IMG/VR virus record: IMGVR_UViG_3300027797_000013
Coordinates: 57,643-121,642 of that record
Reading direction: 5' to 3' (one strand)
Source of the DNA: a virus
Length of the DNA stretch: 64,000 nucleotides
Notes under the pieces: generated by a model
Seen by the model: only the letters and a program-made list of their open reading frames with translations
Database searches by the model: none
Told to the model about the DNA's origin: nothing
Made by a program: the position numbers and the translations under genes
In this document: positions 6,922-43,902 of the stretch, piece by piece
Layout of the letters: each line of letters starts with the position of its first letter
How positions within the stretch are numbered: position 1 is the stretch's first letter

Positions 6922-6983
6922 TATATTATTTAATATAGAAATAAATTGCTGTACGAGAAGTTATTAATTCTACCAGTCAAAAT

Positions 6984-7625: not shown

Positions 7626-7661
7626 TATAGTATTTAATATAGATATAACCAGAAGAGCCAG

Positions 7662-8564
7662 TTATAAAAAGAAATGAACCCCATCAATAACTTTAACTTT
7701 ACTGTCCGCTGTACTCTCAAATAACTCTACATTACCTTTAACCTCACACACTGCTCTAATTTGTTCTTCAGTAAATGGTATACCTCTATTAGATCTCATT
7801 GAAAAATTACCTTCTACATATTTAGGTATACCTTTAAGAGACATAATCTGATTTAAACCACACACAAAATCTCCACGTACAATAGTCGGAGCAAATTCTA
7901 AAGATTCCAACTGATTGTCCCTACAATTAAACAAGCCATTCACAGTAGTAGGAGCTCCCTTAAGAGAGGTGAGTTGATTAGATTGACAATAATATGAACC
8001 GTTTACTGTTGTGGGTCCATATTCTAAAGAATTGAGCTTATTATTGTAGCAACTAAATGGACCTCTAAGTATCTCGCCTACACTTGTAGGAGCTCCCTTA
8101 AGAGAGGTAAGCTCATTATCATCGCAATTGTAAGAATTTCCTACACTAGTAGGTCCGCCTTCAAGAGATTTAAGTTTATTACCGTTACAATTGAACGAGT
8201 GTCTTAGTGTTGATGGAGCACCTTTAAGATTAGATCTAATTCGATTGTAGCTACAATAAAATGATTGGGTTACTGTAGTAGGAGCAAATTCAAGACTCTC
8301 GAGATTATTAAACCTGCAGTCGAATATACCAAACTTACTATTAGGTCCACCTATTACTGTAGTAGCTCCTTCAAGAGATTTAAGTTTACTGTGTGTGCAA
8401 TTATATGTACCTCTTACTATGTTAGGAGATCCTATAAGATTAGATAGTTGGTTGAAAGAACAAATAAAGTCGCCTTTAACATCGAGACCATCCAAGAAGT
8501 CAGGTAGAGTTTTTAACCTTATATTCTGTAGTATTACATCTCCTTCTATATACTTACTGGGCAT
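7662..8564 (-). CDS. LRR protein, array member 7
   Basis: Shared caps and repeats. Confidence 0.88.
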   Translation of the reverse strand: MPSKYIEGDVILQNIRLKTLPDFLDGLDVKGDFICSFNQLSNLIGSPNIVRGTYNCTHSKLKSLEGATTVIGGPNSKFGIFDCRFNNLESLEFAPTTVTQSFYCSYNRIRSNLKGAPSTLRHSFNCNGNKLKSLEGGPTSVGNSYNCDDNELTSLKGAPTSVGEILRGPFSCYNNKLNSLEYGPTTVNGSYYCQSNQLTSLKGAPTTVNGLFNCRDNQLESLEFAPTIVRGDFVCGLNQIMSLKGIPKYVEGNFSMRSNRGIPFTEEQIRAVCEVKGNVELFESTADSKVKVIDGVHFFL

Positions 8565-8615
8565 TATATTATTTAATAGAGAATAAAAACTTAACTAGCT
8601 AATAGAAGTAACTTG

Positions 8616-9275
8616 CTATAATAAAACTTTCCCTTTAACATTACACACAGCTCTTATATCTTCTTCGGTAACATTTAGTGTAGAGTAACCCTCTTTATCA
8701 AGTTGTTCTTGACACACAAAATCACCTCCTACACTTTTAGGGCACCCTTCAAGAGATTCAAGACGGTTTTGCGAGCAATTAAACTCTCCTACAATATGAG
8801 TAGGAGCACCAACAAGAGAAGTGAGTTTATTAAATGTACAATAAAAATCACCTCCTACAGATGATGGAGCGTGTCTAAGATCAGGAAGCTGATTACCACA
8901 ACAAAAAAAGCCCGAACCTATAATACAATCTGCAGCTCCTTCTAAAGTAGTAAGTAGACTATCAGTACATAAAAACTTGCCTCGTATATCTATAGGAGCA
9001 CCGATGAGATTAGTAAGCCGACTAACAGAGCAATTAAAATTACCTTTTACAATAGTAGTGCTTATTTCTAGCTTAGTAAGACGATTAACAGCGCCATTAT
9101 AATTGCCGTCTATGATATGAGGTGAACCTTTAAGAGTAGTAAGCTTATTATTATGGCACCAAAAATGACCCTGAGTCCGACCATCTCTTATTTCTATCCC
9201 ATCCAAGAAGTCAGGAAGAATATGTAAGTGAAGAAACCCCATATCAACTCTACCTTCTATGTAATTCCTGGGCAT
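8616..9275 (-). CDS. LRR protein, array member 8
   Basis: Shared caps and repeats. Confidence 0.88.
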   Translation of the reverse strand: MPRNYIEGRVDMGFLHLHILPDFLDGIEIRDGRTQGHFWCHNNKLTTLKGSPHIIDGNYNGAVNRLTKLEISTTIVKGNFNCSVSRLTNLIGAPIDIRGKFLCTDSLLTTLEGAADCIIGSGFFCCGNQLPDLRHAPSSVGGDFYCTFNKLTSLVGAPTHIVGEFNCSQNRLESLEGCPKSVGGDFVCQEQLDKEGYSTLNVTEEDIRAVCNVKGKVLL

Positions 9276-9299: not shown

Positions 9300-9650
9300 A
9301 TGTATATAAAAAGAAGAAAAATATAATGTTTTTAAAGAAAAATAATTAAATTAAAAAAATAAAGGGAGCTTGCTAATAGAAGTAGGTCAAGATAATAGGC
9401 TTGTCTTGCTAATAGACGCGTGTATGTGTATATAAGAGGAAATATAATGTAACTATATGTAAAGCATAAAAGAGTGTAGAGAGACCATGAGAGAACCAAA
9501 AGAACACATAAGAGAAGATATCGAGCATATAGAAGAGAGAAGGATATAAGGAGAAGGATGATAAGAGTGTATTGTGGAGTATGGAGTAGTTCGTATTTAT
9601 AGCAAAGAGATAAAATATACGAAATAGAGAAATACAAGAGAAATATATTA
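9300..9650. other. non-coding purine-rich (A/G) tract between divergent gene blocks
   Basis: Strong A/G skew on + strand, very few C; no credible ORF. Confidence 0.7.
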
Positions 9651-9676
9651 AATAACGAACTACGATAAAATAAAAT

Positions 9677-9970
9677 ATGAGCTTAGATAAAGCAATTGAA
9701 TTTGGAAAGGAGAAAAGAAAGCAATATAGAAAGAGCAAAGCTTTCGATCGCACTTGCCGCAATCACGGATCCTGTCCCTGGTGCGAAGGAAATAGAACAT
9801 ATCAAGCTCGCAAAGAGCATAAGAGAATTCAGAGTTCAGAGAAAGAAGAAGAGTATGAAGAGATTACAGAACCTAAAAAGTCTAGAAATTACGAGATTCC
9901 CCCATTATGGAAATTATTGAGACCTGAAGAGTCTGATGGCTCCGAGTATGGACCTTTTCAGACATACTAG
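9677..9970 (+). CDS. hypothetical basic protein with C/H cluster (CRNHGSCPWC)
   Basis: ORF directly behind a promoter motif copy. Confidence 0.75.
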   Translation: MSLDKAIEFGKEKRKQYRKSKAFDRTCRNHGSCPWCEGNRTYQARKEHKRIQSSEKEEEYEEITEPKKSRNYEIPPLWKLLRPEESDGSEYGPFQTY

Positions 9971-10005
9971 AAACCTGGAAAATTTCCATACACAGACAGT
10001 CTCGA

Positions 10006-10094
10006 AATTACTAGAATGGAGTCAACCTGAAAATTATCAGACCCGCGTCATTATGGTAATTACTAGAATGGAGTCAACCTGAAAATTATCAGAC
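10006..10094 (+). repeat. 37-bp perfect direct repeat x2 (AATTACTAGAATGGAGTCAACCTGAAAATTATCAGAC)
   Basis: Copies at 10006-10042 and 10058-10094. Confidence 0.9.
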
Positions 10095-10149
10095 AGAAGG
10101 TAATAACGAACTCCGATATAATGATGGAGTAGAGAGTAACAAATAATTT

Positions 10150-10224
10150 AGCAGAGTGGAGCAGTGGTAGCTCGTTAGGCTCATAACCTAAAGGTCGTTG
10201 GTTCGAACCCAACCTCTGCAACCA
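10150..10224 (+). tRNA. tRNA-Met(CAT), initiator-like
   Basis: Cloverleaf, loop CTCATAA, 1:72 mismatch, A11:T24, encoded CCA. Confidence 0.9.
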
Positions 10225-10278
10225 ATCTTTTAACGAACTCCGATATAATAAGTTGTCGGCAATAACCTTATCTTCTAT

Positions 10279-10530
10279 ATGACCAACTCTACTATCATCG
10301 CTGCTCTCAATGCTACCGAAGATCCTGCACTTGACAATATCATTATAGGTATGGCAGATATTGAATGTGGGTTCGGTTCTTACGAAAAGGCGGTACGGTA
10401 TGCTGCTTCTAGAAGCACGTATGAAGAGGTAATGAAGCTTCGAGATGCGTACGAGAAGCTAGCAGAGACGATGCAGCACGTAGCTACTGTTAAGCAGATA
10501 CTATTCCGAGATGGTAATAACGAACTCTGA
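10279..10530 (+). CDS. hypothetical early protein
   Basis: Behind a motif copy; stop lies within the next motif copy. Confidence 0.7.
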   Translation: MTNSTIIAALNATEDPALDNIIIGMADIECGFGSYEKAVRYAASRSTYEEVMKLRDAYEKLAETMQHVATVKQILFRDGNNEL

Positions 10531-10565
10531 TATAATAATGGAGTAGAGAGTAACCAAAACCTAAT

Positions 10566-10940
10566 ATGCGAACATTCGAAGAAATCAAAGCTAGCATGAA
10601 GAATCGTAAGCCTACGATCTTTAGTGAGATCGCTGAAAACGAACTCCGATATAATAAGGGAGTAAAGAGTAAAACTACTATGCGAACCTTCGAAGAAATT
10701 CTTGATAGTATCAAAGACATCGATCTAATGTTCGATGACGAATTGATCAATAAGTTCATTAACGAAAGAGATGATCATTCGACGGCGAATCTATATAATC
10801 TACTCAAAGCGGGATCGTTGAATGAGGATGATATTTGTGACTTAGATGAAAATGATGTTCGGAATATCGTTGATTATGTTAACGTTCGATATGATATTGA
10901 TTTGAAAGTAGTCGGTTGTAAAGTGATATGGAATAGTTAA
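10566..10940 (+). CDS. hypothetical early protein; second in-frame start at 10680 behind an internal promoter copy
   Basis: MRTFEEI occurs twice, each time behind a motif copy. Confidence 0.7.
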   Translation: MRTFEEIKASMKNRKPTIFSEIAENELRYNKGVKSKTTMRTFEEILDSIKDIDLMFDDELINKFINERDDHSTANLYNLLKAGSLNEDDICDLDENDVRNIVDYVNVRYDIDLKVVGCKVIWNS

Positions 10941-10988
10941 CGAACTCCGATATAATAATGGAGTAGAGAGTATTAAAACTAATATATA

Positions 10989-11222
10989 ATGAAACAACTT
11001 AAGAAACAACTGGTTAGCTTTATTATGGAAAGTGAGAGCGCGCTCGTTCTATATAATGGAGTTGGTGGTGTAGTGGACGAACTGTCTCGAGAAGAGGTAG
11101 AGTCGATGGTCGAGAGTTGTAAGACAAAGTCAGAATTAAGTCGACTCATTATGGGTAAGTGGATGTATAGTGATGTGTATGGGAGCTTCGAAGAGCTGTT
11201 AGAGGATATTGAGACTGAATAA
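10989..11222 (+). CDS. hypothetical early protein
   Basis: Behind a motif copy. Confidence 0.7.
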   Translation: MKQLKKQLVSFIMESESALVLYNGVGGVVDELSREEVESMVESCKTKSELSRLIMGKWMYSDVYGSFEELLEDIETE

Positions 11223-11225
11223 GTT

Positions 11226-11396
11226 ATGACACTATCAATTGTACCGAAAGAGCGCCGCGTATGTCAGTACTGTGGCTCGGGGCATCTGATAGTCGCTACT
11301 ACGCACGATCCGGTCCGGACCGATTGGTGTATGCTGTGTGGTCGCAAGCTAGATGAAGAGCTCAATGAGCTTCTGGAAGATATTGATATTGAATAA
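11226..11396 (+). CDS. small Zn-ribbon protein (CQYC...CMLC), 56 aa
   Basis: Translated by hand; below ORF-track cutoff. Confidence 0.6.
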   Translation: MTLSIVPKERRVCQYCGSGHLIVATTHDPVRTDWCMLCGRKLDEELNELLEDIDIE

Positions 11397-11419
11397 GCTC
11401 TCAGGTTAACCTGAGAGCT
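11396..11419. repeat. perfect 24-bp palindrome AGCTCTCAGGTTAACCTGAGAGCT
   Basis: Directly visible. Confidence 0.9.
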
Positions 11420-11449
11420 GAGGCAAAAGGAACTCCGATATAATAAGGT

Positions 11450-11629
11450 ATGACGATTACAGAACTAATTAACAAACTGCAGCAATTGAAAATGGAAAGC
11501 GGCGACATTAACGTACTTACTTATGATGAAAGTGAAGGTGCTTTTAATGTCGTTCAAAGTGCCTTTCTTTCATATCCTGATTCAGATGACGATGAAGGGA
11601 TCGTGCCAACTGGAGTAATTCTTCAATAA
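11450..11629 (+). CDS. hypothetical early protein, 59 aa (MTITELINKLQQL...), paralog of 15560..15739
   Basis: Fills the space between two motif copies exactly. Confidence 0.75.
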   Translation: MTITELINKLQQLKMESGDINVLTYDESEGAFNVVQSAFLSYPDSDDDEGIVPTGVILQ

Positions 11630-11690
11630 GGAACTTCAATATAATAATAGAGTAGAGACTAACAAACAAACAATTAATCTAATCAATCAT

Positions 11691-12074
11691 ATGGCTTATC
11701 AATCTAAATACAAAGGCGTCCTCGTTCATCCTTCTGATAAAGACACACTGAACACTCTCCGTGCGCTAGCCCCTAGCCTTACTGAGGCAGATATGATGCA
11801 GTTCTTTATCAATAGTGTTGATAAAGAATCATTTACCGCTTTCCTCGTTGAAGAGGAGACTCGTAACTTCCTCAAGAAGAACGATAAGAAAGAGGCTTCC
11901 GCTAAGCCTGCTAAGAAAGCAGCTAAGGCCGAGACGGTTGATAAGCCGGTCAAAGAGAAGAAGGTAAAGAAGGTCAAAGAGCCTGTGTTCGTAGCGACAG
12001 AAGAAGAGACTGATAAGGTTCGCGAACTGCACGATAAAGACGAGCCTGCTATTCGCGTAGTGGTAGGCTGCTAG
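11691..12074 (+). CDS. hypothetical protein with Lys/Ala-rich (histone-like) tail
   Basis: AKPAKKAAKA...KEKKVKKVK; behind a motif copy. Confidence 0.75.
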   Translation: MAYQSKYKGVLVHPSDKDTLNTLRALAPSLTEADMMQFFINSVDKESFTAFLVEEETRNFLKKNDKKEASAKPAKKAAKAETVDKPVKEKKVKKVKEPVFVATEEETDKVRELHDKDEPAIRVVVGC

Positions 12075-12100
12075 CATAAGGAACTCCGATATAATAAGGT

Positions 12101-12265
12101 ATGAATACGACCCCAACTGAAGACGCAGTTAAGATCGCGCTGTTGCGCAAGACGCTAGAAGACTTGATCGGTGAGTGGGGCGGTCAAGTTGTCGATCCTA
12201 ACTGCGACTGTGAGGACTGCAATCATCTGCGCCCTCTGTATAGAGCGCTTGAAGCGACAAAGTAA
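12101..12265 (+). CDS. hypothetical early protein, 54 aa (CDCEDC)
   Basis: Between two motif copies. Confidence 0.7.
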   Translation: MNTTPTEDAVKIALLRKTLEDLIGEWGGQVVDPNCDCEDCNHLRPLYRALEATK

Positions 12266-12287
12266 AGGAACTCCGATATAATAAGGT

Positions 12288-12494
12288 ATGAAGACACAAC
12301 AAGAGATCAAGGAGACTAGAGAGTACATCAAAGATACAGTGCAGTTCAAGATTAAGGTTGCTAAGGCTAATGAGTGGTTCGAACGCAACTTCAAATTGTC
12401 TGATGACGCTGACGAAGGTCGACACATCTGCGAGCGGTACTGCGAAGAGATCAAAGCCCTTCACGAGCTCTACCGTTACGAAAAAGGTCTATAA
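12288..12494 (+). CDS. hypothetical early protein
   Basis: Behind a motif copy; paralog of the next gene's N-terminus (EWFERNFK/EWFEKNFK). Confidence 0.75.
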   Translation: MKTQQEIKETREYIKDTVQFKIKVAKANEWFERNFKLSDDADEGRHICERYCEEIKALHELYRYEKGL

Positions 12495-12507
12495 TTATAT
12501 TACTACA

Positions 12508-12951
12508 ATGTCCTATATCGACAATGCAATCGATCTCTCTGCCGACGTCACGAGAGCTACTGAGTGGTTCGAGAAGAACTTCAAGCAGTCAGAAAGCGCT
12601 GAAGAAGGTACGCGAGTATGTGAACGGTACCTCGCTGAGATGAAAGCTCTTCACGATCACTATGTTACAAAGGTTGAAACATATAAAAACAATTGTGAAT
12701 ACTATACCGACAAGCCACGCATTACCGTTGACAATGTCAACTACGATTGGGACGGTTGGGCTGACGCCTATCTAGGTCCAACTACTCCATCTGGTATATA
12801 TGGTGCACGAGAAGAGGAAGATGGTAAATGGCGACCAGCGGTATACCGTCCAACCGAATACGATGCCGAATTATCATTTGAATCATTCGACACACCTCAC
12901 TCTGCTATTAAAAGATCACTCGCTTACTTCGCAAAAGGAACTTCGATATAA
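12508..12951 (+). CDS. hypothetical early protein (start revised to MSYIDN)
   Basis: Homology to the preceding gene begins here; stop lies inside the next motif copy. Confidence 0.7.
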   Translation: MSYIDNAIDLSADVTRATEWFEKNFKQSESAEEGTRVCERYLAEMKALHDHYVTKVETYKNNCEYYTDKPRITVDNVNYDWDGWADAYLGPTTPSGIYGAREEEDGKWRPAVYRPTEYDAELSFESFDTPHSAIKRSLAYFAKGTSI

Positions 12952-12955
12952 TAAT

Positions 12956-13135
12956 GTTGTCAGAGATTGAAAGATACGTTTGACATAAAAACAAACGGCT
13001 CGTTAGCTTAATGGCAAAAGCGTCTTAGATGGTGACATCTAAGGAGATGAAGGTTCGATTCCTTCCCGACCCTGCTTTCAACGTAGGATGAACATCCGAA
13101 CAACGAGGCGTCAGAATACGCCTACAAGACACAAC
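12956..13135 (+). ncRNA. candidate structured RNA with anticodon-less tRNA-like domain (12997-13073)
   Basis: D arm GCTT/AAGC, T arm GAAGG-TTCGATT-CCTTC, 9-bp GTGA-capped stem in place of the anticodon arm; own promoter copy; no ORF. Confidence 0.7.
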
Positions 13136-13161
13136 TTTAGGAACTCCGGTATAATAATAGT

Positions 13162-13506
13162 ATGACCAACGACGAATTCATCAAAGACACCATCGAGTAC
13201 TACTGCACAGACTCTGACCGCATCGCATATCCAGGTCCAATGTACAAGTGTGGTGGTCGCTTCTGCGCCGTTGGTCGGTGGATTAAGCCTGAGAAGTACT
13301 GTAACGCAATGGAGTGCAGTCCTAACGTAGAGGAGCTGCTCCAAATATATCCTGACTGCTTGATGGATGAAGTGAGTAGTGTTGATGTAGAGGTACTCTC
13401 TGTGATGCAGCAGATGCACGATGTAGTGTTGTCCAGTATTTATTCAACTGAGCAGAATCGACAAAAGGCAAAGGTGTTCCTCGAACGCCGCGGCATCACA
13501 ATCTAA
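13162..13506 (+). CDS. hypothetical early protein
   Basis: Between motif copies. Confidence 0.75.
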   Translation: MTNDEFIKDTIEYYCTDSDRIAYPGPMYKCGGRFCAVGRWIKPEKYCNAMECSPNVEELLQIYPDCLMDEVSSVDVEVLSVMQQMHDVVLSSIYSTEQNRQKAKVFLERRGITI

Positions 13507-13528
13507 AGGAACTCCGATATAATAAGGT

Positions 13529-13894
13529 ATGAACATTAACGATCTAACAGATGCAGAGCTGATTGAAGTCAAAGAGGCTTGGGAAGGAGTAAACAAAGGA
13601 CAGTACCATGCATGGACCCATACACGCGCTGATGGCTGGGATGACTTCGATGTAGCGAGAGCTTATCCTGAGTGGTGCTTCGCTGATAATCCCGAGCGGA
13701 TGCTCAATACATACCCACACTGGGTAGCAATCAATCAACCTGAATTCGCGTTCGAACGTGAGCCAAAGACAGTAGCTGTAGACAATAACCGTTGGGTAAA
13801 AGAGAACAGGCCCGAGTACTACGCAGAGTATAGGAAGGCGATGCGCTTAGCAGGTTATGTACCACATAACGGAATGGGCATCGAAGAGCTGTAA
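13529..13894 (+). CDS. hypothetical early protein (short PxW repeats)
   Basis: Behind a motif copy. Confidence 0.75.
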   Translation: MNINDLTDAELIEVKEAWEGVNKGQYHAWTHTRADGWDDFDVARAYPEWCFADNPERMLNTYPHWVAINQPEFAFEREPKTVAVDNNRWVKENRPEYYAEYRKAMRLAGYVPHNGMGIEEL

Positions 13895-13937
13895 CCAAGG
13901 CGGGTCGTTTGTTTAAGGAACTCCGATATAATAAGGT

Positions 13938-14126
13938 ATGACCGAAACTGAATACAACGAAATTGCTGCTGAAATCTTTGAATCTGCTATGTGGACTATT
14001 AAGTTTACATTAGATGCTAAGAAGTCATCAGATGAAGAAAAGCTAAGTCAAATTAAAACAATCGTCAGCGGAGCCTTCAAACGCATCGCAGAAGAAGAAC
14101 TCAATATGCTGTGCGACGAAGAATAA
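13938..14126 (+). CDS. hypothetical early protein
   Basis: Between motif copies. Confidence 0.7.
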   Translation: MTETEYNEIAAEIFESAMWTIKFTLDAKKSSDEEKLSQIKTIVSGAFKRIAEEELNMLCDEE

Positions 14127-14149
14127 ACGAACTCCGATATAATAATAAT

Positions 14150-14362
14150 ATGCACAATGTATCTGTTGGTGACATCTTTATGGATTCAAATGAAGTCTTT
14201 CGTGTGATAGAAGTTCTAGAAAACGAGAAGTTTCCTGAAGATCCACTCATCGAAGTTGAAGTGTGTATGAGTGGTCCCGGGCGCGAGGGCTTGGGCGACT
14301 GGAGCTTCACTCTCGAACAAGCAGAAAAGTACAACCTGCAGCACTACAAAGCTGCCAAGTAA
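14150..14362 (+). CDS. hypothetical early protein (MHNVSVGD...), paralog of 26102..26272
   Basis: Start revised to the ATG behind the motif. Confidence 0.75.
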   Translation: MHNVSVGDIFMDSNEVFRVIEVLENEKFPEDPLIEVEVCMSGPGREGLGDWSFTLEQAEKYNLQHYKAAK

Positions 14363-14385
14363 ACGAACTCCAATATAATAATAAT

Positions 14386-14637
14386 ATGACACAATCAATC
14401 AACTCCTTCGACCTTACTCCAAACGAGCACATCGCTCTTGACAATATTACTGCAAAGCTGCTCGATGATGTCAATGTCGATATCAAAGAAGCCTTCGAAG
14501 TAGTCCAGGCCATTACTCAATCAGAAGGACTGACTGTAGAAGAGGTAATCAAGTTCCTCACAGAGAGCCTATTCATGGACCTCGAAGTAAGCCCTGATGG
14601 TATGACGTTTAAGGCTAACGATGTGCATGATGTATAG
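14386..14637 (+). CDS. hypothetical early protein (MTQSINSF...)
   Basis: Start revised to the ATG behind the motif. Confidence 0.7.
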   Translation: MTQSINSFDLTPNEHIALDNITAKLLDDVNVDIKEAFEVVQAITQSEGLTVEEVIKFLTESLFMDLEVSPDGMTFKANDVHDV

Positions 14638-14783
14638 TTCTATTCACGTAAAGGTTCTTCCTAAGAAAATAGATTATAGCTCTTCGACAATAGAGTGTGA
14701 AGCACGCCGTCTTCTATACATTGACGATAGAACTATAGAGTACTGTCAAAAGACCACGACCACCCACCCACTACCTCCGGTAT

Positions 14784-15026
14784 ATGACTACTGCAGAGAA
14801 GATAGCGATCTTGGATAAGGAGTATGCCGATGCCAAGATCGTTGTCAATAAGACCATAGAGACCTTCTGTGGTCTGAATTCAGCTGAATCGTTGGCAGTG
14901 CGCAGGCTGTTCCAGACAGAGAGAGCACTAGATGGTCTGCTAAAGGCTCTCAGAGAGCGTCACATTAGTAATCCGGACATAGAATGGATCATTGGTGTAG
15001 CAGAAGACATCCGCTACCTAGAGTAA
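14784..15026 (+). CDS. hypothetical protein
   Basis: ORF whose stop abuts a motif copy. Confidence 0.65.
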   Translation: MTTAEKIAILDKEYADAKIVVNKTIETFCGLNSAESLAVRRLFQTERALDGLLKALRERHISNPDIEWIIGVAEDIRYLE

Positions 15027-15047
15027 GGAACTCCGATACAATAAGGT

Positions 15048-15332
15048 ATGACCGACGAACTCAAAACAAACCAAACGTGGGCCGAAATTTCAGCTCTGCG
15101 TACAGAAGCCAATATCAAGTCCGCTGCTGCGCACAGAGCTTGGCTTCGGTCTACTGTAGACCTCAACACTCTCGGACAAAACGAGCAGGTGGTGAAGGAA
15201 GTAAATGATAAGCGAGCTGCTGCCTATGCTGAGTATAAGCGCTGTCACGATGAGGCCTTTAGAATCTCGCAGATAGCCAACTCCTTGTATAGAGATATGG
15301 CAGGTTCAGATGATCATCTGTTTAACAAATAG
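15048..15332 (+). CDS. hypothetical early protein
   Basis: Behind a motif copy. Confidence 0.7.
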   Translation: MTDELKTNQTWAEISALRTEANIKSAAAHRAWLRSTVDLNTLGQNEQVVKEVNDKRAAAYAEYKRCHDEAFRISQIANSLYRDMAGSDDHLFNK

Positions 15333-15362
15333 ACCAGTAAGGAACTCCGATATAATAATAGT

Positions 15363-15533
15363 ATGACCGACATTACTAAATTCACTGCTGCAGAGCTGGC
15401 TCGTATCGAAGCATACGACGCTGACCTTCTTATGCTCAAAGGTTGGGCATCTAATCTCGAAGAGGCTACACAGATGGCCCGAGCCACTCTCTGTAAACGC
15501 TTTGGTGTTAAACAAATGCCTAACCAAGACTAG
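15363..15533 (+). CDS. hypothetical early protein, 56 aa
   Basis: Between motif copies; translated by hand. Confidence 0.7.
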   Translation: MTDITKFTAAELARIEAYDADLLMLKGWASNLEEATQMARATLCKRFGVKQMPNQD

Positions 15534-15559
15534 TAAAGGAACTCCGATATAATAATAGT

Positions 15560-15739
15560 ATGACGATTACAGAACTCATCAACAAACTACAGCAATTGCA
15601 AACGCAAGACGGTAATGTAAATGTAAACATTGTCGATGAAAGCGAAGGTGCTTTTAAGTATTACAAAGTGTTGTACTACAACAATCCGAACCAGGATACA
15701 AATATGAGCGCTGGTCGCCCTGGTGAAGTACTTCAGTAA
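15560..15739 (+). CDS. hypothetical early protein, 59 aa, paralog of 11450..11629
   Basis: Identical N-terminal 13 aa, shared DESEGAF, same length. Confidence 0.75.
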   Translation: MTITELINKLQQLQTQDGNVNVNIVDESEGAFKYYKVLYYNNPNQDTNMSAGRPGEVLQ

Positions 15740-15755
15740 AGGTACTCCGATACAA

Positions 15756-16030
15756 GCTCTCTATATAGCTAATATAGAGAGCAGGCGCTAGCGATAGCTA
15801 CGCCTCTAGACTATCAGCTCTCTAGACCGTCAGCGCTCCAGATTGTGTATAGAGAGCGAGAGAAAAAAAAGGTGTGAGCCGCCATGGCCCAATTTTTTTT
15901 TTGCAAATTTCCGAAGACCTCCCATATAGGAATTTTTGCAAATTTCCGTATAGCCCTCTTCTCCCAATCCCCCCACGCCTATAAGATATTCGGAGTCGAT
16001 ACGGAAAATTTTTTTTTCGGAAATTCTCAG
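15756..16030. other. structured non-coding region: hairpins, 16-bp tandem repeats, A/T tracts, TTTTTGCAAATTTCCG x2
   Basis: Hairpins at 15756-15782 and 15783-15805; repeats at 15898 and 15933; inverted related CGGAAA(A)TT copies near 16002-16026. Confidence 0.7.
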
Positions 16031-16118
16031 AGTTTTCCTAATAGCCGATTTGTAGATAATACCTTATAAGGTGACTCTAAATTACGGATGAGAGGCGGAT
16101 TGAAATATAAATAACTAT

Positions 16119-16607
16119 ATGAAGAAAACAGATATCGAGCAGCTTGGTGCACTCTATGAACAAATAAGCTTCGGAGAGCCTGGTGGTGGTGACAAGTATG
16201 GTCCTACTATGGGCCGAGGCGGTTACGGTGTCAGAGTTGCTCCTAAGGAAAAGCGTGATCCAGATGAGTATAATGATGGATACGATGACGATGAAGATGG
16301 GCCTGATGACTATTTCGACTATGGTTCCTGTATGTTTAAGAAGAACACTTTTCAAAGAAATCCTTCTTCAATTAAAGCTCATACTACTTTAATTGATGAG
16401 GTAGATAATAATAAATCTATTTCTTTCGACAGATTTTGGGAGCTCTTTAGTGTAATGTATAGCCTTACAGAGAAGGATACACCTCATTCTAACTTCTTTA
16501 AAGTGGCTATTCGTTGCGCTGTTTATAAAGTAAACCAGGACTTCCCTGACATGTCGCTAGAAGCATCTTTACCTGGAGAAGGCTCAGTATACAAAAAGGA
16601 AAGTTAA
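16119..16607 (+). CDS. hypothetical late protein
   Basis: TATAAATA-N5-ATG. Confidence 0.75.
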   Translation: MKKTDIEQLGALYEQISFGEPGGGDKYGPTMGRGGYGVRVAPKEKRDPDEYNDGYDDDEDGPDDYFDYGSCMFKKNTFQRNPSSIKAHTTLIDEVDNNKSISFDRFWELFSVMYSLTEKDTPHSNFFKVAIRCAVYKVNQDFPDMSLEASLPGEGSVYKKES

Positions 16608-16627
16608 TTACTAAACTAAATAGTAAT

Positions 16628-17251
16628 ATGACTCTAAATCACAATGTTGGTAACATTAAATGTTTAGTAAGAGTCTCTCACTTGACCCATAATCCAGAAG
16701 ATCATGACAAGTACCATAATGCTTACATATTTGGTATTCAATCTATATCTATGAAGATCTTAACATTCCATATCATGACTGATTATGGAATGATGAGAAG
16801 TAGGGTTCCTATTAGTGAGATATTTTTGTCTGAGCCTACTAATGATATTCCTTTCCACTTTAAACAGCTGTGGGATTGCTTTAGCGAGAATGTATCGGTA
16901 ATTACTTATGAGTATCTAAAGGAAAAGAGATGCGAAGTATTACTGAAGGACGGATCAAAGATTTGGGCGAGCTATCTCTTTACCGTAGATTGGTACAACA
17001 ATGCTTATTCAGATGAGCCTTCTGATTATAAGTGTGGACACGTCTTAGTAGCAGATGATGGTTATCTATTATGCCAGCCTAATAATAGAATATACTGGAG
17101 AGACTCTAACTGGGTCACTAAGCCTTTTCCCTTTAAGACAACAAAGACTATAAAGGTTGATAATAAATTACCTTCGGTAGAGGTCGTTTCAGACAAATGG
17201 GTTACCGAAGATACTGATTCTTATTATTACGATATATCTAAAAAGGCATAG
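16628..17251 (+). CDS. conserved hypothetical phage protein
   Basis: 207-aa ORF; QLWDCFS, YLFTVDW and QPNNRI motifs. Confidence 0.75.
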   Translation: MTLNHNVGNIKCLVRVSHLTHNPEDHDKYHNAYIFGIQSISMKILTFHIMTDYGMMRSRVPISEIFLSEPTNDIPFHFKQLWDCFSENVSVITYEYLKEKRCEVLLKDGSKIWASYLFTVDWYNNAYSDEPSDYKCGHVLVADDGYLLCQPNNRIYWRDSNWVTKPFPFKTTKTIKVDNKLPSVEVVSDKWVTEDTDSYYYDISKKA

Positions 17252-17272
17252 GCTAGATTAGGATCTTAGCTA

Positions 17273-18268: not shown

Positions 18269-18294
18269 ATAGATACTTAATCATTTAAGCTGTC

Positions 18295-18798
18295 TTATTC
18301 AGGACTGATCATATAAGTCGACCATACTTGTCCAGTAGCTGCGTCTCTATGCACAGGTCCGCTATTGGCTACAGATAGTGTGATACCTTGACGCTCTGCC
18401 TTCTTTAAGATTTGTTTTAACAGTGGCTCTGATAGGGTGTTTGGAGATGTAGTAAGTGACTTACCGTCTTTTAGTTTAGAAATCAATTGATCTATCCAGC
18501 TGAATAGATCTTTCATATAATTAGTTTTCTCTACACCAGGCACTGCTACAATACCTAACACAGCTACTAGCTCGTCAGAATCGATATAGCGCACAATCAT
18601 GCTACCATCTTCAGTCTTATAGGTTTCAATAGGCGCTCCAAAATATTGAGACGCCATCTTGTCCTGAGATCTAATTGTATTTACTAGCTTCGCATCATAG
18701 TGTTGACCTACTGCATTATAGTATTCCTCATCATTTGATGAAACAGCTTCATTCAACATCCGCTCATATATTAAAGTCAAAGGGTCTTTCTTGGTCAT
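18295..18798 (-). CDS. hypothetical late protein
   Basis: TAAATA-N5-ATG. Confidence 0.7.
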   Translation of the reverse strand: MTKKDPLTLIYERMLNEAVSSNDEEYYNAVGQHYDAKLVNTIRSQDKMASQYFGAPIETYKTEDGSMIVRYIDSDELVAVLGIVAVPGVEKTNYMKDLFSWIDQLISKLKDGKSLTTSPNTLSEPLLKQILKKAERQGITLSVANSGPVHRDAATGQVWSTYMISPE

Positions 18799-19824: not shown

Positions 19825-19845
19825 ACCTTATTATATCGGAGTTCG

Positions 19846-20085
19846 TTATGGGTACAGTTTCTGTACCAGTTCTTTGTGTTTGCAAAGTATTTCGTCCATC
19901 TCTTCACGACTAAACGTTCGTGTCGACGTCCAGACTTGTAGATCTAATCCTTCAACTTCTTTCTCGCAAATTCCGCATCGCGCTTTTTTGATCGGGTTTT
20001 GCTCGGACGCGAGGATTTGGTATCCGAATCCACAGTACTTACAGACGTGTGTAATGCGGTGGTAGGTCTCAATAGTAGTTTCCAT
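19846..20085 (-). CDS. small Zn-finger protein (CKYC...CGIC)
   Basis: Two CxxC motifs. Confidence 0.65.
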   Translation of the reverse strand: METTIETYHRITHVCKYCGFGYQILASEQNPIKKARCGICEKEVEGLDLQVWTSTRTFSREEMDEILCKHKELVQKLYP

Positions 20086-20659: not shown

Positions 20660-20685
20660 ACTATTATTATATCGGAGTTCGTTAA

Positions 20686-21661: not shown

Positions 21662-21704
21662 ACTTTATTATATCGAAGTTCGTTTAGATCTATATGAAAA
21701 AATA

Positions 21705-23941: not shown

Positions 23942-23947
23942 ACCTTA

Positions 23948-24184
23948 TTATATCGGAGTTCGTTTTAACTTTCGATTCAAAATACTTTCAACAATAGTCT
24001 TTTTCTCAGCTTTCAACTCTTTTAAAAGAGCAATATAATCAGCAGAACTACAGATGCAAGTAATCTGTAAAGAAGGATCATCCATAGCTCCGCAGTCGCA
24101 GCTATCGCGATGCTCATCGATACTCTTACTGAGCTCAATAATGCGCTCCATAGTACGAGTTTCTTCTGCCGTTAGTTTTTTCAT
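23948..24184 (-). CDS. hypothetical protein
   Basis: ORF; stop lies inside a motif copy. Confidence 0.6.
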   Translation of the reverse strand: MKKLTAEETRTMERIIELSKSIDEHRDSCDCGAMDDPSLQITCICSSADYIALLKELKAEKKTIVESILNRKLKRTPI

Positions 24185-25320: not shown

Positions 25321-25369
25321 ATTAATTTCTGATTACTCCTTATTATACTGTAGTTCGTTAAAAGTTCAA

Positions 25370-25558: not shown

Positions 25559-25696
25559 ACTATTATTATATTGAAGTTCGTTAAGGTTAATATTACAGAA
25601 TGTACCAAATAGTGCAGATAATAAGGAACCCTAATCCTACACAAACAAGAGCAGTACTTAGCAGTTCATTATCGTTATCATCGTTATAGTTCATAA

Positions 25697-26077: not shown

Positions 26078-26101
26078 TAACAATATTATATCGAAGTTCG
26101 T

Positions 26102-26272
26102 TTACTCAGTTAACCAAGAAAGCAAAGTAAACTTTCCCCAGCGATTTGTTTTTTTAATCGACTCAATATGGAGAATTGGATCATTGGGATTCTCTGCGTT
26201 GTTTATAACTTCAATTACGCGCATTTTATCGTTTGAAACTGTAAAGACATCATTAACAGATATATTGTGCAT
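26102..26272 (-). CDS. hypothetical early protein (MHNISVND...), paralog of 14150..14362
   Basis: ATG behind a motif copy; protein similarity. Confidence 0.7.
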   Translation of the reverse strand: MHNISVNDVFTVSNDKMRVIEVINNAENPNDPILHIESIKKTNRWGKFTLLSWLTE

Positions 26273-26294
26273 ATTATTATTATATCGAAGTTCG

Positions 26295-27308
26295 TTACGC
26301 CAATCCTGCATCAACAAGAGATCTTTCATGCTTAGCTAATTTTAAATCTGCATCGACCATAATACCACAAAGCTCTTTAAACCTCACTTTAGGCTCCCAA
26401 CCTAGAGCGTTTTTAGCTTTACTAGGATCGCCAATTAACAAATCTACTTCCGCGGGTCGATCGTATCTAGTATCGTACTTGACATACTGTCGCCAATCGA
26501 GATCGAGAGCACTAAACGTCTCTTCGACAAATTCCTGAACGCTATGAGTCTCATTTGTAGCAGCTACATAGTCGTCTGGCTTATCTTGCTGAAGCATTAG
26601 CCACATCATATGTACATATTCCTTTGCATATCCCCAGTCACGCTTTGCGTCTAGATTTCCTAAAACTAATTCAGATTGCAGACCCATTTTAATACGAGTA
26701 GCTGCTCTAGTAATTTTACGCGTGACAAAGGTCTCACCTCTACGAGGCGACTCATGATTGAAAAGTATACCGCAACTTGCATGCATCCCATACGACTCAC
26801 GATAGTTGACAGTCAACCAGTGACCATACAATTTAGCGCAAGCATATGGAGAGCGTGGATAGAATGGAGTAGTTTCAGTCTGCGGTACTGCTTGCACCTT
26901 ACCATACATTTCTGACGATGATGCTTGATAGTATCGAGTATACTCGATCAAGCCTGTTTGCTTGATCGCATCAAGCAGTCGTAGAGTTCCGAGACCGACA
27001 ATGTCACCTGTTGACTGAGGAATGTCGAAAGAGACTCGCACATGGCTTTGCGCGCCGAGATTATAAATTTCGTCTGGCTCAATTTGTGTAAGTAGCTGGC
27101 TTAAACATGCAGCATCAGTTAAGTCACCGAAGTGTAACTTAAGACGATCGCCGAGCTCTGGATTACTATAGATATGCTCTATACGACCAGTATTAAAGCT
27201 AGAAGAGCGCCGTATTATACCATGAACCTCGTAACCCTTATCTAGGAGTAACTCAGCTAAATAAGAACCGTCTTGACCAGTAATACCAGTTATAAGCGCT
27301 TTTTTCAT
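26295..27308 (-). CDS. gmd: GDP-mannose 4,6-dehydratase
   Basis: [55 protein letters not shown]. Confidence 0.97.
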
Positions 27309-30296: not shown

Positions 30297-30308
30297 ATTA
30301 TTATTATA

Positions 30309-30953
30309 TTAGAGTTCGTTAACGGTATTGTAAAACTTTTTGGCTACGATTTTTGGGAGACCGAATTGTTTAAACATTGGCAGGATCTCATTTCGAACCC
30401 AGTTACGTCTATACGTGTTGTCCTTATTGGTCTCATCCTCTACAATATATGAGGTGAGTTTGTTGTGCACGGTATAATTTACAAAATCTTCCTTTTTAGT
30501 TCTCATAAAAGGTCTAATGAGCATTTTTGGCTTAATTAGTTTACAGTTGTCTAAAGGAGTAAGAGTAGGTACAGGTACATACTCAGGACATCCTCTTAGC
30601 ATATTCATTACGTAGCCTTCAACCGCATCTCCGTTATGATGACAACATACTACATCACTGTATAGAGATTTAAAAAAATCCATTCTTTCCTCTCTTAAGG
30701 CATCTTCGCTCTTGGTCCAAAAAGCACCACGCGTACCAACTACGCATTCAGTAGAAAAATGATGACAAAACACTTCTACCATCTCTTGCATAGTATGATT
30801 TTGTTGTCTCAAATTATGATTAAAGTGAGCTACTTTGACTCGATCTCCGTAAAGTCTAATTAAGAGATGAGCTGCTGCGATACTGTCCACTCCACCAGAT
30901 ACAGCGACGTAGAACTCGCCGCTAGGAATCAATGAACGATCTAATTTAATCAT
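30309..30953 (-). CDS. tilS: tRNA(Ile)-lysidine synthetase (catalytic domain only)
   Basis: VAVSGGVDS PP-loop, HFNHNLR, HHNGDAVE, LIRPF, DETN...YRRNWVRNEILP. Confidence 0.9.
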   Translation of the reverse strand: MIKLDRSLIPSGEFYVAVSGGVDSIAAAHLLIRLYGDRVKVAHFNHNLRQQNHTMQEMVEVFCHHFSTECVVGTRGAFWTKSEDALREERMDFFKSLYSDVVCCHHNGDAVEGYVMNMLRGCPEYVPVPTLTPLDNCKLIKPKMLIRPFMRTKKEDFVNYTVHNKLTSYIVEDETNKDNTYRRNWVRNEILPMFKQFGLPKIVAKKFYNTVNEL

Positions 30954-30975
30954 ACCTTATTATATACAAGTTCAT

Positions 30976-31009
30976 AAAAAAGGCTCTCGCCAATTTGGCG
31001 AGAGCCTTT
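30976..31009 (-). terminator. rho-independent terminator after the porin gene
   Basis: AAAGGCTCTCGCCA/TGGCGAGAGCCTTT inverted repeat with T-run. Confidence 0.8.
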
Positions 31010-32281: not shown

Positions 32282-32308
32282 ATATAATAGCTTTACTGTA
32301 TAACCTTA

Positions 32309-32674
32309 TTATAAGGTAGTTCCATTTGACTGTAAGCAATCCATAGAGAACATTTCTACATTTTCAGTCATGTCAAATTGCTGATTCATGATACCTAGTA
32401 GAGCATTTTTGCTATGCGAAGTATAGATAGCTACCTCTTTTTCGTCAATACTGCCAAAGTAATACTCAGTATAAGTCTCTTCCTCGAAACCAGTATAAGA
32501 CTCTGCCTCGAAACCTTCGCAATATTCTATAATATCTACAGGAGACTTATCCATAAAAGTGATAAACTGAGTCTCATCTATCTCTTCTAGCTTATAACCA
32601 ACTCGTGATGCATTATACGTACCAAATATATTTTCTGGATTACAAGTCGCGTAAGTCAAAGTAAGTTTGTGCAT
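32309..32674 (-). CDS. hypothetical early protein
   Basis: Behind a motif copy. Confidence 0.7.
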   Translation of the reverse strand: MHKLTLTYATCNPENIFGTYNASRVGYKLEEIDETQFITFMDKSPVDIIEYCEGFEAESYTGFEEETYTEYYFGSIDEKEVAIYTSHSKNALLGIMNQQFDMTENVEMFSMDCLQSNGTTL

Positions 32675-32698
32675 ATTATTATTATATTGTAGTTCGTT

Positions 32699-33630: not shown

Positions 33631-33705
33631 TGTGCTTATTATATATAAGTTCGTTAACTAAAATATTAAAGAAAAACCCATAAATTAAATTATGGGTTAA
33701 GAAAT

Positions 33706-34023: not shown

Positions 34024-34107
34024 ATTGTTTGTATTTAAAATATATGTCTTTAAAATTAAAATCTACAAAAACTTTCGTTATTCGTATAATGATTATATCG
34101 TAGTTCG

Positions 34108-34353
34108 TTAATAAACTGCAGCGCCGAATCCATCACCATATCCACCACCATTACCAGACCCGGAACCAGAACCAGCTCCAGACCTAGCTCCTTCTCCAAA
34201 CCCGTCTCCATATCCGCATCCACTACCATTACCCTTACCGAATCCCGACCCCGTAGCATTTCCAAAACCGTATCCAAGCCCAGTAGTATCTTCTAAACCA
34301 GATCCCCATTCTAGATCTGGTGAATATGTACTGTGTATATAACTTAGTTTCAT
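34108..34353 (-). CDS. Gly-rich (GxG)n mini-protein 1 (start revised to MKLSYIH)
   Basis: Leader aligns with paralogs. Confidence 0.75.
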   Translation of the reverse strand: MKLSYIHSTYSPDLEWGSGLEDTTGLGYGFGNATGSGFGKGNGSGCGYGDGFGEGARSGAGSGSGSGNGGGYGDGFGAAVY

Positions 34354-36940: not shown

Positions 36941-36983
36941 TTTTTTGTCTATACATTTTTATATAAGAGTTCGTTAAAGTGAG

Positions 36984-37146: not shown

Positions 37147-37198
37147 AATTTGTTGTTGTACAGTTATTATACGGTAGTTCGTTTTTAAATCTACTATA

Positions 37199-37842: not shown

Positions 37843-37880
37843 AGATACTTAAGACAAATTTATTATAAAGCAGTTCGTTA

Positions 37881-39241: not shown

Positions 39242-39285
39242 ACCTTATTATATGAAAGTTCGTTTATTAATCTACTGTTAACTTT

Positions 39286-40727: not shown

Positions 40728-40784
40728 AGTAGTAAATACTTTACACCTTATGATATAGTAGTTCGTTATTTGTTGTTTTTAAAT

Positions 40785-43868: not shown

Positions 43869-43902
43869 AAAACAATTGTATTGTAGTTCGTTATAAAGTC
43901 AA

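Follow-up and report, generated by a model that had tools for sequence, protein, structure and literature searches.

A −35-less, promoter-like repeat heads small single genes, probably as leaderless units, in an uncultured far-T4 phage from freshwater

Promoter-early stem-loop elements (PeSLs) of T4-like phages are the closest described relatives of the repeat analysed here. Passages of PMC4122927 (Comeau et al., 2014) describe them as a stem-loop terminator followed by a −35 hexamer, a 17-nucleotide spacer (N17), a −10 hexamer, a Shine–Dalgarno (SD) sequence and a start codon, and passages of PMC2839356 (Arbiol et al., 2010) and PMC4122927 place them next to insertions, deletions, replacements and displaced open reading frames (ORFs), where they are thought to act by recombination between copies. 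Here we describe an 18-bp repeat, AA(C/G)GAACT-N4-TATAAT, in 64,000 nucleotides of viral DNA (hereafter the window), namely bases 57,643-121,642, the final 64 kb, of the 121,642-bp IMG/VR record IMGVR_UViG_3300027797_000013. As with PeSLs, repeated promoter-like intergenic elements separate small ORFs within a hyperplastic part of a T4-type genome, and motif copies coincide with indels, replacements and displaced ORFs, both in comparison with a close relative (relA) and at joints between population variants. Unlike PeSLs, the motif has no −35, carrying a box at −24 to −17 instead; stem-loops accompany just two or three copies; and there is no SD, the ATG following 5-7 nt past the −10. We would therefore describe it as a PeSL variant without −35, stem-loop or SD, and not as a PeSL proper, because these are three of the four sequence features that define the family. 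On balance we favour the view that the repeat is a leaderless, −35-less class of pre-late (early or middle) promoter whose copies also shape gene content by recombination.

The consensus AASGAACTCCGATATAAT matched the window 38 times at up to three mismatches, compared with 0.21 on average, and never more than 1, in 100 dinucleotide-shuffled sequences, and 15 of the 38 copies are exact. Twenty lie on the plus strand (9654-15756) and 18 on the minus strand (19830-43892), every copy facing a downstream gene on its own strand. Across the whole 121,642-bp record, a 15-mer core at up to one mismatch occurs 24 times, always within the window (reversed control, 0), and the looser expression GAACT-N4-TAnAAT finds 39 sites (20 plus, 19 minus), just 2 of them outside it. 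The −10 hexamer reads exactly TATAAT at 35 of these 39 sites, TAnAAT being present in all by construction. Plus-strand copies follow one another at 119-670 bp from start to start, and each interval holds one or two small ORFs, a tRNA-Met or a tRNA-like RNA (19 units, with ORFans); preceding stop codons adjoin the motif or fall within it. Among the genes behind GAACT copies are tRNAs, ORFans and nucleotide-metabolism genes. Much of this had been described in a first-pass annotation of the letters alone, which reported about 20 head-to-tail copies closed by a degenerate one at 15739 (we find 20 plus-strand matches, the last at 15739-15756 with three mismatches), about 20 more on the minus strand (18 at our threshold), intervals filled by small ORFs, a tRNA or a non-coding RNA with stops abutting or inside the motif, and the lack of a −35 at most copies. 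It had also described 12 conserved base pairs directly before the −10. This is correct for the invariant 8-bp box AA(C/G)GAACT, at about −24 to −17, but the four bases between box and TATAAT are constant, as CCGA, in the plus array only and vary in the minus copies.

The box stands where a −35 is absent. Upstream of −26, information content is about zero in the 39 copies and likewise in 207 unique copies pooled with those of relatives, of which four carry TTGA[CT] in the −35 window, and a generic −35/−10 scan of the array gave 19 pairs against 16.2 ± 5.0 expected, that is, chance. No extended −10 (TGn) appears in the scan table, positions −15/−14 being CG or variable. Terminator-like hairpins between 9300 and 16300 number 5 compared with 4.3 expected, with 1 on the plus strand; near copies, hairpins were seen only at 11396-11419, at 20696-20732 on the minus strand and, as a remnant, at 13894-13914.

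What the first-pass annotation had missed is that the ATG mostly stands at a near-constant distance. At 27 of the 39 copies, an ATG opening an ORF of at least 40 codons lies 5, 6 or 7 nt past the −10 (12, 12 and 3 copies, respectively). This spacing implies that the mRNAs would be leaderless, because the A of such an ATG is the sixth to eighth base after the −10 and the usual −10 to +1 distance puts the start site there. Three of the remaining copies precede tRNA-type genes and nine have leaders of 19-68 nt, a conserved leader GGAGTAGAGAGTAAC being common to several of them. Only 14 of 172 genes in the phage have an SD-like 4-mer at −20 to −5. Of 23 TATAAT hexamers found 5-7 nt ahead of a start, 22 carry the box. 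Of 90 genes with no promoter-like hexamer and another gene before them on the same strand, 38 are no more than 5 nt from that gene, a distance compatible with translational coupling.

In the mechanism that we propose, TATAAT would serve as a sigma-70-type −10 and the AA(C/G)GAACT box (−24 to −17) would replace the −35. Transcription would begin at or beside the start codon and yield a leaderless mRNA, and genes would be translated from their own 5′-terminal AUG or by tight coupling to the preceding gene. That nearly every mini-gene has its own promoter, and that stop codons run into the next promoter, would then be expected because SD sequences are nearly absent and the AUG must be 5′-terminal or coupled. 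A −10 beside the ORF that gives leaderless transcripts is a pattern found in Actinobacteria and, reportedly, in Thermus phage phiYS40 (work of Sevostyanova et al., 2007, is said to describe it). Passages of PMC12340547 report the same for Deinococcus-Thermus, where a −10 motif beside ORFs gives leaderless mRNA. The likeness lies in a −10 a few bases ahead of the start, the lack of a ribosome-binding site and the sufficiency, in some cases, of the −10 alone; the difference is that here a freshwater T4-type phage appears to use two such classes at once (GAACT/TATAAT and TAAATA), the early one with an extra box.

Three candidate signals were set aside. A T at −1 of the ATG, considered as a start-site signature, is equally frequent without a promoter hexamer (70 of 110 genes). 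An extracytoplasmic function (ECF)-type −35 (GGAAC) or a sigma-54-like −24/−12 geometry does not suit the spacing to the −10 and the ATG. In a metatranscriptome, run X2, 97% of sampled words from the region were present and contigs end at 12264, 15547 and 15756, on motif copies; these ends were not counted as start-site evidence, as assembly breaks are expected at repeats and DNA may be present.

The record has a CheckV completeness of about 58%, so that some 40% of the phage genome lies beyond it, and the gene negatives given below cover its 121 kb. Pfam and PHROG scans took in 171 of 172 called ORFs, the one left out running across the window edge. They identified T4-type core genes, encoding the Gp23 major capsid protein, Gp20 portal, gp15, S77 prohead protease, a T4-type large terminase, the gp44 clamp loader and sheath, tube and baseplate proteins. 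Identity of the major capsid protein is about 32% to its best-ranked records, which are cultured cyanophages, and below 60% to all 2578 matching records. DNA similarity of the array to cultured phages is confined to tRNA-Met genes, and a megablast search with 24 kb of the window gave no match; because capsid identity to cultured phages is so low and DNA matches only tRNA genes, there was no annotated relative to compare with. The array occurs in public metagenome runs of freshwater, lake or sediment origin, which belong to 14 studies. Core genes, distant capsid and freshwater runs together make this an uncultured freshwater 'far-T4' (T4-type) myovirus. Of 24 array ORFs, 22 have no Pfam or PHROG match and 2 match PHROGs of unknown function.

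A second hexamer occupies the same position ahead of late genes. In 33 genes, TAAATA stands 4-7 nt before the ATG (24 at 5 nt, 7 at 6 nt and 2 at 7 nt), whereas the background is 19 of 1758 ATGs (1.1%). These genes include portal, prohead protease, sheath and tube, as well as a repeat-protein family. At many of the sites the sequence is TATAAATA, which is the core of T4 late promoters, a class read in T4 by gp55/gp33/gp45. The likeness to T4 thus extends from the (T)ATAAATA sequence ahead of structural genes to a gp55-like sigma factor in a sister genome (below), but the placement differs: in a T4 control the motif lies 9-46 nt before SD-bearing starts, and here it lies 5-6 nt before the ATG. 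Applied to annotated starts across a late region of T4 (50 kb), the same analysis finds an SD-like 4-mer at 39 of 53 genes and TAAATA at 4-7 nt at 0 of 53. The late genes of the far-T4 phage therefore look leaderless as well. TAAGTA-N5-ATG, a variant that could represent a third class, is also found repeatedly, as ahead of 17273-18268, 18842-19651 and 20089-20433.

The motif is widespread among relatives. Extending the scan beyond the record, as the first-pass annotation had proposed, an exact 17-mer was found in 54 stretches of viral contigs, several with many copies, and in the pooled unique copies an ATG lies 5-7 nt past the −10 in 134 of 207. A sister genome, G001 (229,717 bp, 100% complete, capsid 68% identical), has 0 copies of GAACT-N4-TATAAT in its whole length. 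Its layout is otherwise the same, with TAAATA 4-6 nt before the ATG of 50 genes and TATAAT 6 nt before the ATG of 22, but its TATAAT promoters have a canonical TTGAC −35 at about 17 bp (TTGAC-N17-TATAAT-N6-ATG), the consensus of its ORFan array being TTGACtaaAtCCAAatTTCCCa-TATAAT-N6-ATG. It also encodes a gp55-like late sigma (phrog_234, E 1.8e-24). As G001 shares the layout, the leaderless design would be common to the wider lineage; as it uses a TTGAC −35 and has no GAACT copy, the GAACT box would be a clade-specific replacement of the −35.

These comparisons also bear on two readings in which the repeat is no sigma-type promoter. One takes it for an RNA-level signal, without promoter function, for intercistronic translation initiation or processing in polycistronic transcripts. 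The motif does stand directly ahead of start codons, the absence of SD calls for some other initiation signal, and the array holds almost no terminators. We nevertheless regard this as very unlikely, given that the motif also lies 19-44 nt ahead of tRNA and tRNA-like genes, that its 3′ half is the exact sigma-70 −10 consensus, that the companion TAAATA class is the exact T4 late core at the +1 distance of T4, and that G001 has full −35/−10 promoters in the same place. The other would make it the promoter of a phage single-subunit (T7-like) RNA polymerase, with the start in or just after TATA and a short leader such as AUAAGGU. Contiguous conservation over 18-23 bp with an AT-rich 3′ part does resemble T7-class promoters. 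However, the phage is T4-type by its Gp23, Gp20, gp15 and gp44 homologues, the middle four bases vary freely in the minus copies, unlike single-subunit promoters, and the ATG spacing recurs in the T4-late-like TAAATA class. An RNA polymerase gene was found neither in the 121 kb nor among 150 mid-sized ORFs of G001, although such a polymerase is longer than the ORFs scanned there. The chance that this reading is right is slim indeed, and a sigma-type promoter remains our preferred explanation.

The copies of the plus-strand array and the features between them are as follows.

9654..9671, plus strand: copy 1, two mismatches, −10 TAAAAT; ATG at 9677 (5 nt); ORF 9677-9970, 97 aa.
10105..10122, plus strand: copy 2, exact; conserved leader GATGGAGTAGAGAGTAAC, then tRNA-Met 10150-10224.
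10232..10249, plus strand: copy 3, exact; 29-nt leader; ORF 10279-10530 (83 aa), whose stop lies within copy 4.
10519..10536, plus strand: copy 4, one mismatch; conserved leader; ATG at 10566; short duplicated N terminus reading through copy 5.
10638..10655, plus strand: copy 5, exact; 24-nt leader; in-frame ATG, 86-aa product to 10940.
10939..10956, plus strand: copy 6, exact; 32-nt conserved leader; ORFs 10989-11222 (77 aa) and 11226-11396 (56 aa, CxxC...CxxC).
11396..11419, plus strand: perfect 10-bp hairpin AGCTCTCAGG-TTAA-CCTGAGAGCT, shortly 5′ of copy 7; one of the few PeSL-like stem-loops.
11427..11444, plus strand: copy 7, exact; ATG at 11450 (5 nt); 59-aa ORF, a paralogue of the ORF at 15560.
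11628..11645, plus strand: copy 8, two mismatches; 45-nt A-rich leader; ORF 11691-12074, 127 aa.
12078..12095, plus strand: copy 9, exact; ATG at 12101 (5 nt); 54-aa ORF.
12265..12282, plus strand: copy 10, exact; ATG at 12288 (5 nt); 68-aa ORF and ORF 12508-12951 (147 aa), whose stop lies in copy 11.
12935..12952, plus strand: copy 11, one mismatch; precedes the tRNA-like RNA 12997-13073.
13138..13155, plus strand: copy 12, two mismatches; ATG at 13162 (6 nt); 114-aa ORF.
13506..13523, plus strand: copy 13, exact; ATG at 13529 (5 nt); 121-aa ORF.
13915..13932, plus strand: copy 14, exact; ATG at 13938 (5 nt); 62-aa ORF; preceded by an abiF-type 3′ remnant, 13894-13914.
14126..14143, plus strand: copy 15, exact; ATG at 14150 (6 nt); 70-aa ORF; cassette missing in a natural variant.
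14362..14379, plus strand: copy 16, one mismatch; ATG at 14386 (6 nt); 83-aa ORF, then ORF 14784-15026 (80 aa).
15025..15042, plus strand: copy 17, one mismatch, −10 TACAAT; ATG at 15048 (5 nt); 94-aa ORF.
15339..15356, plus strand: copy 18, exact; ATG at 15363 (6 nt); 56-aa ORF with a homologue elsewhere in the relA array.
15536..15553, plus strand: copy 19, exact; ATG at 15560 (6 nt); 59-aa ORF; cassette missing in variants of runs X2 and X3.
15739..15756, plus strand: degenerate end copy, three mismatches, TACAAG for the −10; followed by a perfect 11-bp hairpin, 15756-15782.

The contents of this array differ between relatives. In relA, the last 11.2 kb of a 42.6-kb contig, a syntenic array has 19 motif copies and shares 12 cassettes with the window, at 34-94% amino acid identity and in changed order. 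Six cassettes (tRNA-Met, the tRNA-like RNA and four ORF units) are found in the window only and about nine in relA only; the copy 6 cassette and the one following it are not in relA, and one promoter-proximal element of the minus-strand region of the window is located inside the relA array. Homology blocks end within 5 nt of a motif copy in 9 of 19 cases (null mean 1.7) and within 25 nt in 15 of 19 (null 4.1), values that 0 of 10,000 permutations reached.

A similar pattern is seen within populations. Contigs of four runs were aligned to 9300-29299, and from the joints listed, four within the conserved GDP-mannose 4,6-dehydratase gene (gmd) were left out, as they probably come from other organisms, and two from another table were added to give a set of 13. 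Among these listed joints, 12 of 26 ends fall within 6 nt of a motif copy (null mean 1.1, maximum 6), as do both ends of 4 of the 13. Joint 14123->14360 removes exactly one cassette: the 236 bp lost equal the distance between two motif copies, and 12 nt are common to both sides of the junction, inside a near-repeat of 34-36 bp. The last cassette is lost in runs X2 and X3 (15547->15756), and in run X8 a joint running 203 bp backwards (15734->15532) fits a tandem duplication or a circle. Excised mini-circles with one element and an ORF are a feature of PeSLs. Another X8 joint (12265->20664) links copy 10 of the plus array to the minus-strand copy at 20666. One population variant lacks gmd altogether (26299->27358), with one end of the deletion adjoining the minus-strand copy 26279..26296.

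The first-pass annotation had cast the motif as a crossover site for gaining and losing cassettes, had suggested that gene-content breakpoints be compared with it and that deletion junctions be sought, and had likened the whole to an integron without an integrase. Both comparisons, in the relA block ends and in the clean one-cassette deletion, support the crossover idea at the level of coincidence, and selection for intact genes explains part of that coincidence. We read the repeats as probable short-homology substrates and not as sites of a dedicated recombinase, because the motif lacks palindromic symmetry and the 121 kb yielded no integrase. Copies that are nearly identical over 18-36 bp would act as short homologies, and recombination or replication slippage between them would delete, duplicate, move or invert promoter-plus-gene units; cassette flux would then be a by-product of the repeats, with no dedicated recombination system. 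The integron comparison holds loosely: tandem single-gene units, a short conserved boundary sequence and content that varies between relatives are shared, and there is no integrase, as claimed, but attC and attI are missing as well, each unit has its own promoter and the junctions look like short-homology recombination. A true integron-like platform, in which the motif is the site of a dedicated site-specific system, would account for cassettes being gained, lost, moved and inverted with their junctions at the motif. It is extremely improbable all the same: no integrase or recombinase family was found among the 171 ORFs scanned, the motif has no attC-like arms, the junctions show plain homology and the cassettes carry their own promoters.

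If the repeat is a promoter, the box needs a reader, presumably either a component of the host's RNA polymerase holoenzyme or, slightly more likely, an adaptor supplied by the phage. The second option would follow T4 middle promoter logic, with an activator box plus −10 and no −35. A gene set of tRNAs, nucleotide metabolism and small ORFs behind the motif resembles T4 middle genes, whose promoters, served by sigma appropriation through AsiA/MotA, are likewise a phage-specific class with an upstream box and a good −10. The difference is in geometry: the Mot box of T4, TGCTT, is centred near −30 and GAACT near −20, 4 bp from the −10; no bases are conserved upstream of −26, where a Mot box near −30 would lie, in the 39 copies or in the pooled set of 207. 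We consider a dedicated activator or sigma factor, encoded by the phage or delivered with the virion and analogous to MotA/AsiA, a plausible reader, at somewhat less than an even chance. In its favour, the lack of a −35 together with a strict 8-bp box matches the Mot box plus −10 arrangement described in passages of PMC4122927, and G001, with its TTGAC −35 and no GAACT copy, makes the box lineage-specific. Furthermore, neither the five genomes whose gmd is closest (0-2 copies compared with 0-1 in controls) nor 151 Verrucomicrobiota genomes (maximum 10 compared with 4 in the control) show enrichment of GAACT-N4-TATAAT. On the other side, no candidate factor gene was found in the 121-kb record; no separate immediate-early class is seen, 22 of 23 start-proximal TATAAT hexamers carrying the box and 4 of 207 copies a −35-like TTGA[CT]; and the enrichment test was possibly made in the wrong phylum, as the host is only hinted at.

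That hint comes from gmd (26295-27308, minus strand), whose nearest homologues are in Verrucomicrobiota at 70-78% amino acid identity; parts of the gene are also matched, at 90% or above, by contigs of other organisms from the same lakes. The similarity hints at Verrucomicrobiota as host, and non-enrichment there disfavours a host-type promoter only if the hint is correct. Host RNA polymerase with its primary sigma factor might read the motif unaided, in which case the box would be a host-specific proximal element, or a spacer element touched by sigma region 3 or the beta-prime zipper, and these would be true early promoters. This is a real possibility, which we also place below even. The motif is the sole non-late class seen in 121 kb and heads a typical early ORFan array, and the conserved proximal spacer of G001, AAaTTCCCa-TATAAT, is partly like AACTCCGA-TATAAT, which suggests a shared proximal contact. 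Such an unaided reading is harder to reconcile with a sister lineage that needs a −35 and with the lack of enrichment in the candidate host phylum, and we know of no bacterial group with a GAACT box at −21 to −17. In some bacterial phyla, according to passages of PMC12340547, a −10 beside the ORF suffices for transcription. We lean slightly towards a phage-supplied reader, because G001 has a canonical −35 and the candidate host phylum shows no enrichment of the motif; the host alone is nearly as likely.

Several observations weigh against the combined reading of promoter class and recombining repeat. For E. coli RNA polymerase, a −10 makes a weak promoter when neither a −35 nor TGn accompanies it. 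Pfam and PHROG searches of the record revealed no gene for a sigma factor, anti-sigma factor or activator, and nothing like MotA or AsiA turned up there or, by PHROG, among 150 mid-sized ORFs of 181 in G001. The gp55-like late sigma of G001 was not found in the record or in four fragments of the GAACT clade; because all five are incomplete, this negative is uninformative. Host identity is no more than hinted at by the gmd homologues. Predicted start sites rest on sequence, the sole metatranscriptome that holds the region being available as contigs, which are blind to starts and strand; the promoter class put forward in the first-pass annotation thus stands by its anatomy (orientation, perfect −10, placement, conservation and a separate late class) and not by transcript ends. 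As to gene content, 15 of 22 population joints were listed, and among those listed 5 of 13 have neither end within 25 nt of a copy. An indel relative to relA, 16026-17272, has no flanking motif. Furthermore, the motif makes up nearly all intergenic space in the array, so breakpoints there are partly expected of whole-gene indels, and selection for intact genes therefore explains part of the coincidence.

A broader account is possible but doubtful. It holds that a widespread freshwater far-T4 lineage is leaderless over nearly its whole genome, with +1 at the A of the ATG in both classes and one promoter per gene, and that in one clade the −35 was replaced by a box with a phage-supplied reader, a new form of sigma appropriation, while the repeats drive cassette exchange. 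Confirmed start sites would make this a T4-type phage lineage built around leaderless expression, of which we found no description in the limited part of the literature on leaderless and T4-like phage promoters that was consulted. If true, the account would explain mechanistically why tiny genes stand in promoter-per-gene arrays, offer two sister clades (TTGAC −35 and GAACT box) as a natural pair for finding the reader of −24 to −17, and provide a metagenome-scale system, with runs from 14 studies, in which promoter repeats create gene-content variation. Gene callers that expect SD sequences mis-start genes here; two hexamer rules give exact start codons.

Copies on the minus strand are more dispersed among other genes.

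19830..19847, minus strand: copy, exact; ATG at 5 nt; 54-aa ORF.
20666..20683, minus strand: copy, exact; ATG at 6 nt; 73-aa ORF; preceded by an abiF-type hairpin and T-run (20696-20732).
21667..21684, minus strand: copy, one mismatch; ATG at 5 nt; shortly 3′ of tRNA-Tyr.
23947..23964, minus strand: copy, exact; ATG at 5 nt; 71-aa ORF.
25342..25359, minus strand: copy, three mismatches; 21-nt leader; KaiC/DnaB-like ATPase gene 24400-25320.
25565..25582, minus strand: copy, two mismatches; ATG at 6 nt; 62-aa ORF.
26085..26102, minus strand: copy, one mismatch; ATG at 7 nt; deaminase-like ORF 25697-26077.
26279..26296, minus strand: copy, one mismatch; ATG at 6 nt; paralogue of the ORF at 14150; adjoins the end of the gmd deletion.
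30303..30320, minus strand: copy, two mismatches; ATG at 6 nt; ORF 29271-30296, 341 aa.
30959..30976, minus strand: looser copy TATGAACT...TATAAT (regular expression only); ATG at 5 nt; PP-loop ATPase gene 30309-30953.
32308..32325, minus strand: looser copy ATGGAACT...TATAAT (regular expression only); 26-nt leader.
32681..32698, minus strand: copy, two mismatches; ATG at 6 nt; 121-aa ORF.
33638..33655, minus strand: copy, three mismatches; ATG at 7 nt; 154-aa ORF.
34092..34109, minus strand: copy, one mismatch; 68-nt leader; Hc1-like histone ORF 33814-34023.
36958..36975, minus strand: copy, three mismatches, −10 TATAAA; within a tRNA cluster, upstream of tRNA 36864-36940.
37166..37183, minus strand: copy, three mismatches; 19 nt ahead of tRNA-Arg, the first of a four-tRNA cluster.
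37862..37879, minus strand: copy, three mismatches; 19-nt leader; 60-aa ORF.
39247..39264, minus strand: copy, three mismatches; ATG at 5 nt; 52-aa ORF.
40750..40767, minus strand: weak copy of uncertain status, three mismatches, −10 TATCAT.
43875..43892, minus strand: copy, three mismatches, TACAAT; ATG at 6 nt; PD-(D/E)XK exonuclease gene 43176-43868.

Several features of the two regions deserve mention in their own right. G+C content of the plus array (10000-16000) is 0.40-0.455 compared with mostly 0.31-0.41 elsewhere in the window, which suggests a different cassette origin or codon regime. The tRNA-like RNA at 12997-13073 (plus strand), which has its own motif copy, scores 38.1 bits with the Rfam tRNA model and received no ARAGORN call. 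The 56-aa product of 11226-11396 (plus strand), one of those not in relA, is a zinc-ribbon protein with an acidic tail and has weak, sub-threshold matches (E 0.004-0.007) to the sigma-interacting region of RbpA and the rubredoxin domain of PknG. A 360-bp non-coding stretch, 15757-16118, closes the array; it is partly conserved in relatives (75-87%) and contains several inverted repeats, long A/T runs, the perfect 11-bp hairpin (15756-15782) and TTTTTGCAAATTTCCG in two exact copies spaced by 35 bp. Transcription termination, replication origin or regulation are possible roles for it.

On the minus strand, the 37-nt RNA hairpin at 20696-20732 matches the Rfam abiF motif (RF03085; 51 bits, cut-off 37) and is followed by a T-run and then a motif copy. 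It also occurs in the relA record (G005:C1:36587-36623), where the same 117-nt element lies within the array at 92% identity; at 13894-13914 the window keeps just its 3′ half. In bacteria, the abiF RNA motif accompanies abortive-infection abiF genes; in the phage it might act as a decoy, mimic an antitoxin or do no more than terminate transcription. The product of 33814-34023 (minus strand), 69 aa long, matches the chlamydial histone H1-like Hc1 family (PF07432, E 7.9e-10). For 36864-36940 (minus strand), in the tRNA cluster, ARAGORN calls a tRNA with a four-base anticodon (aatg) and Rfam gives 46.2 bits; it could be of the frameshift-suppressor type or have an odd anticodon loop. At 34108-36287 (minus strand), eight paralogous genes for short products (79-95 aa) stand in a row, with weak matches of keratin-associated and TrAA12-like kinds; the row coincides with the 34-36 kb bin, whose GC skew is an extreme −0.51.

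Upstream of the array, 2357-9275 (minus strand) holds tandem paralogous genes for proteins of about 200-325 aa with leucine-rich-repeat-like units (FxCxxNxLTSLxGxP) and weak matches to LRR_4 and phrog_7816; several are preceded by a near-identical CTATATTAAATA(A/C)TATA-ATG. Elsewhere in the record, locus L010 (record 29816-32762) includes a QueF-like gene of the 7-deazaguanine pathway, and a GAACT-type copy, AATGAACT, heads the QueF operon. G001 (L153, L154) has QueC-, QueD- and QueE-like genes together with one for GTP cyclohydrolase, and the presence of these 7-deazaguanine genes hints at modified DNA in the lineage.

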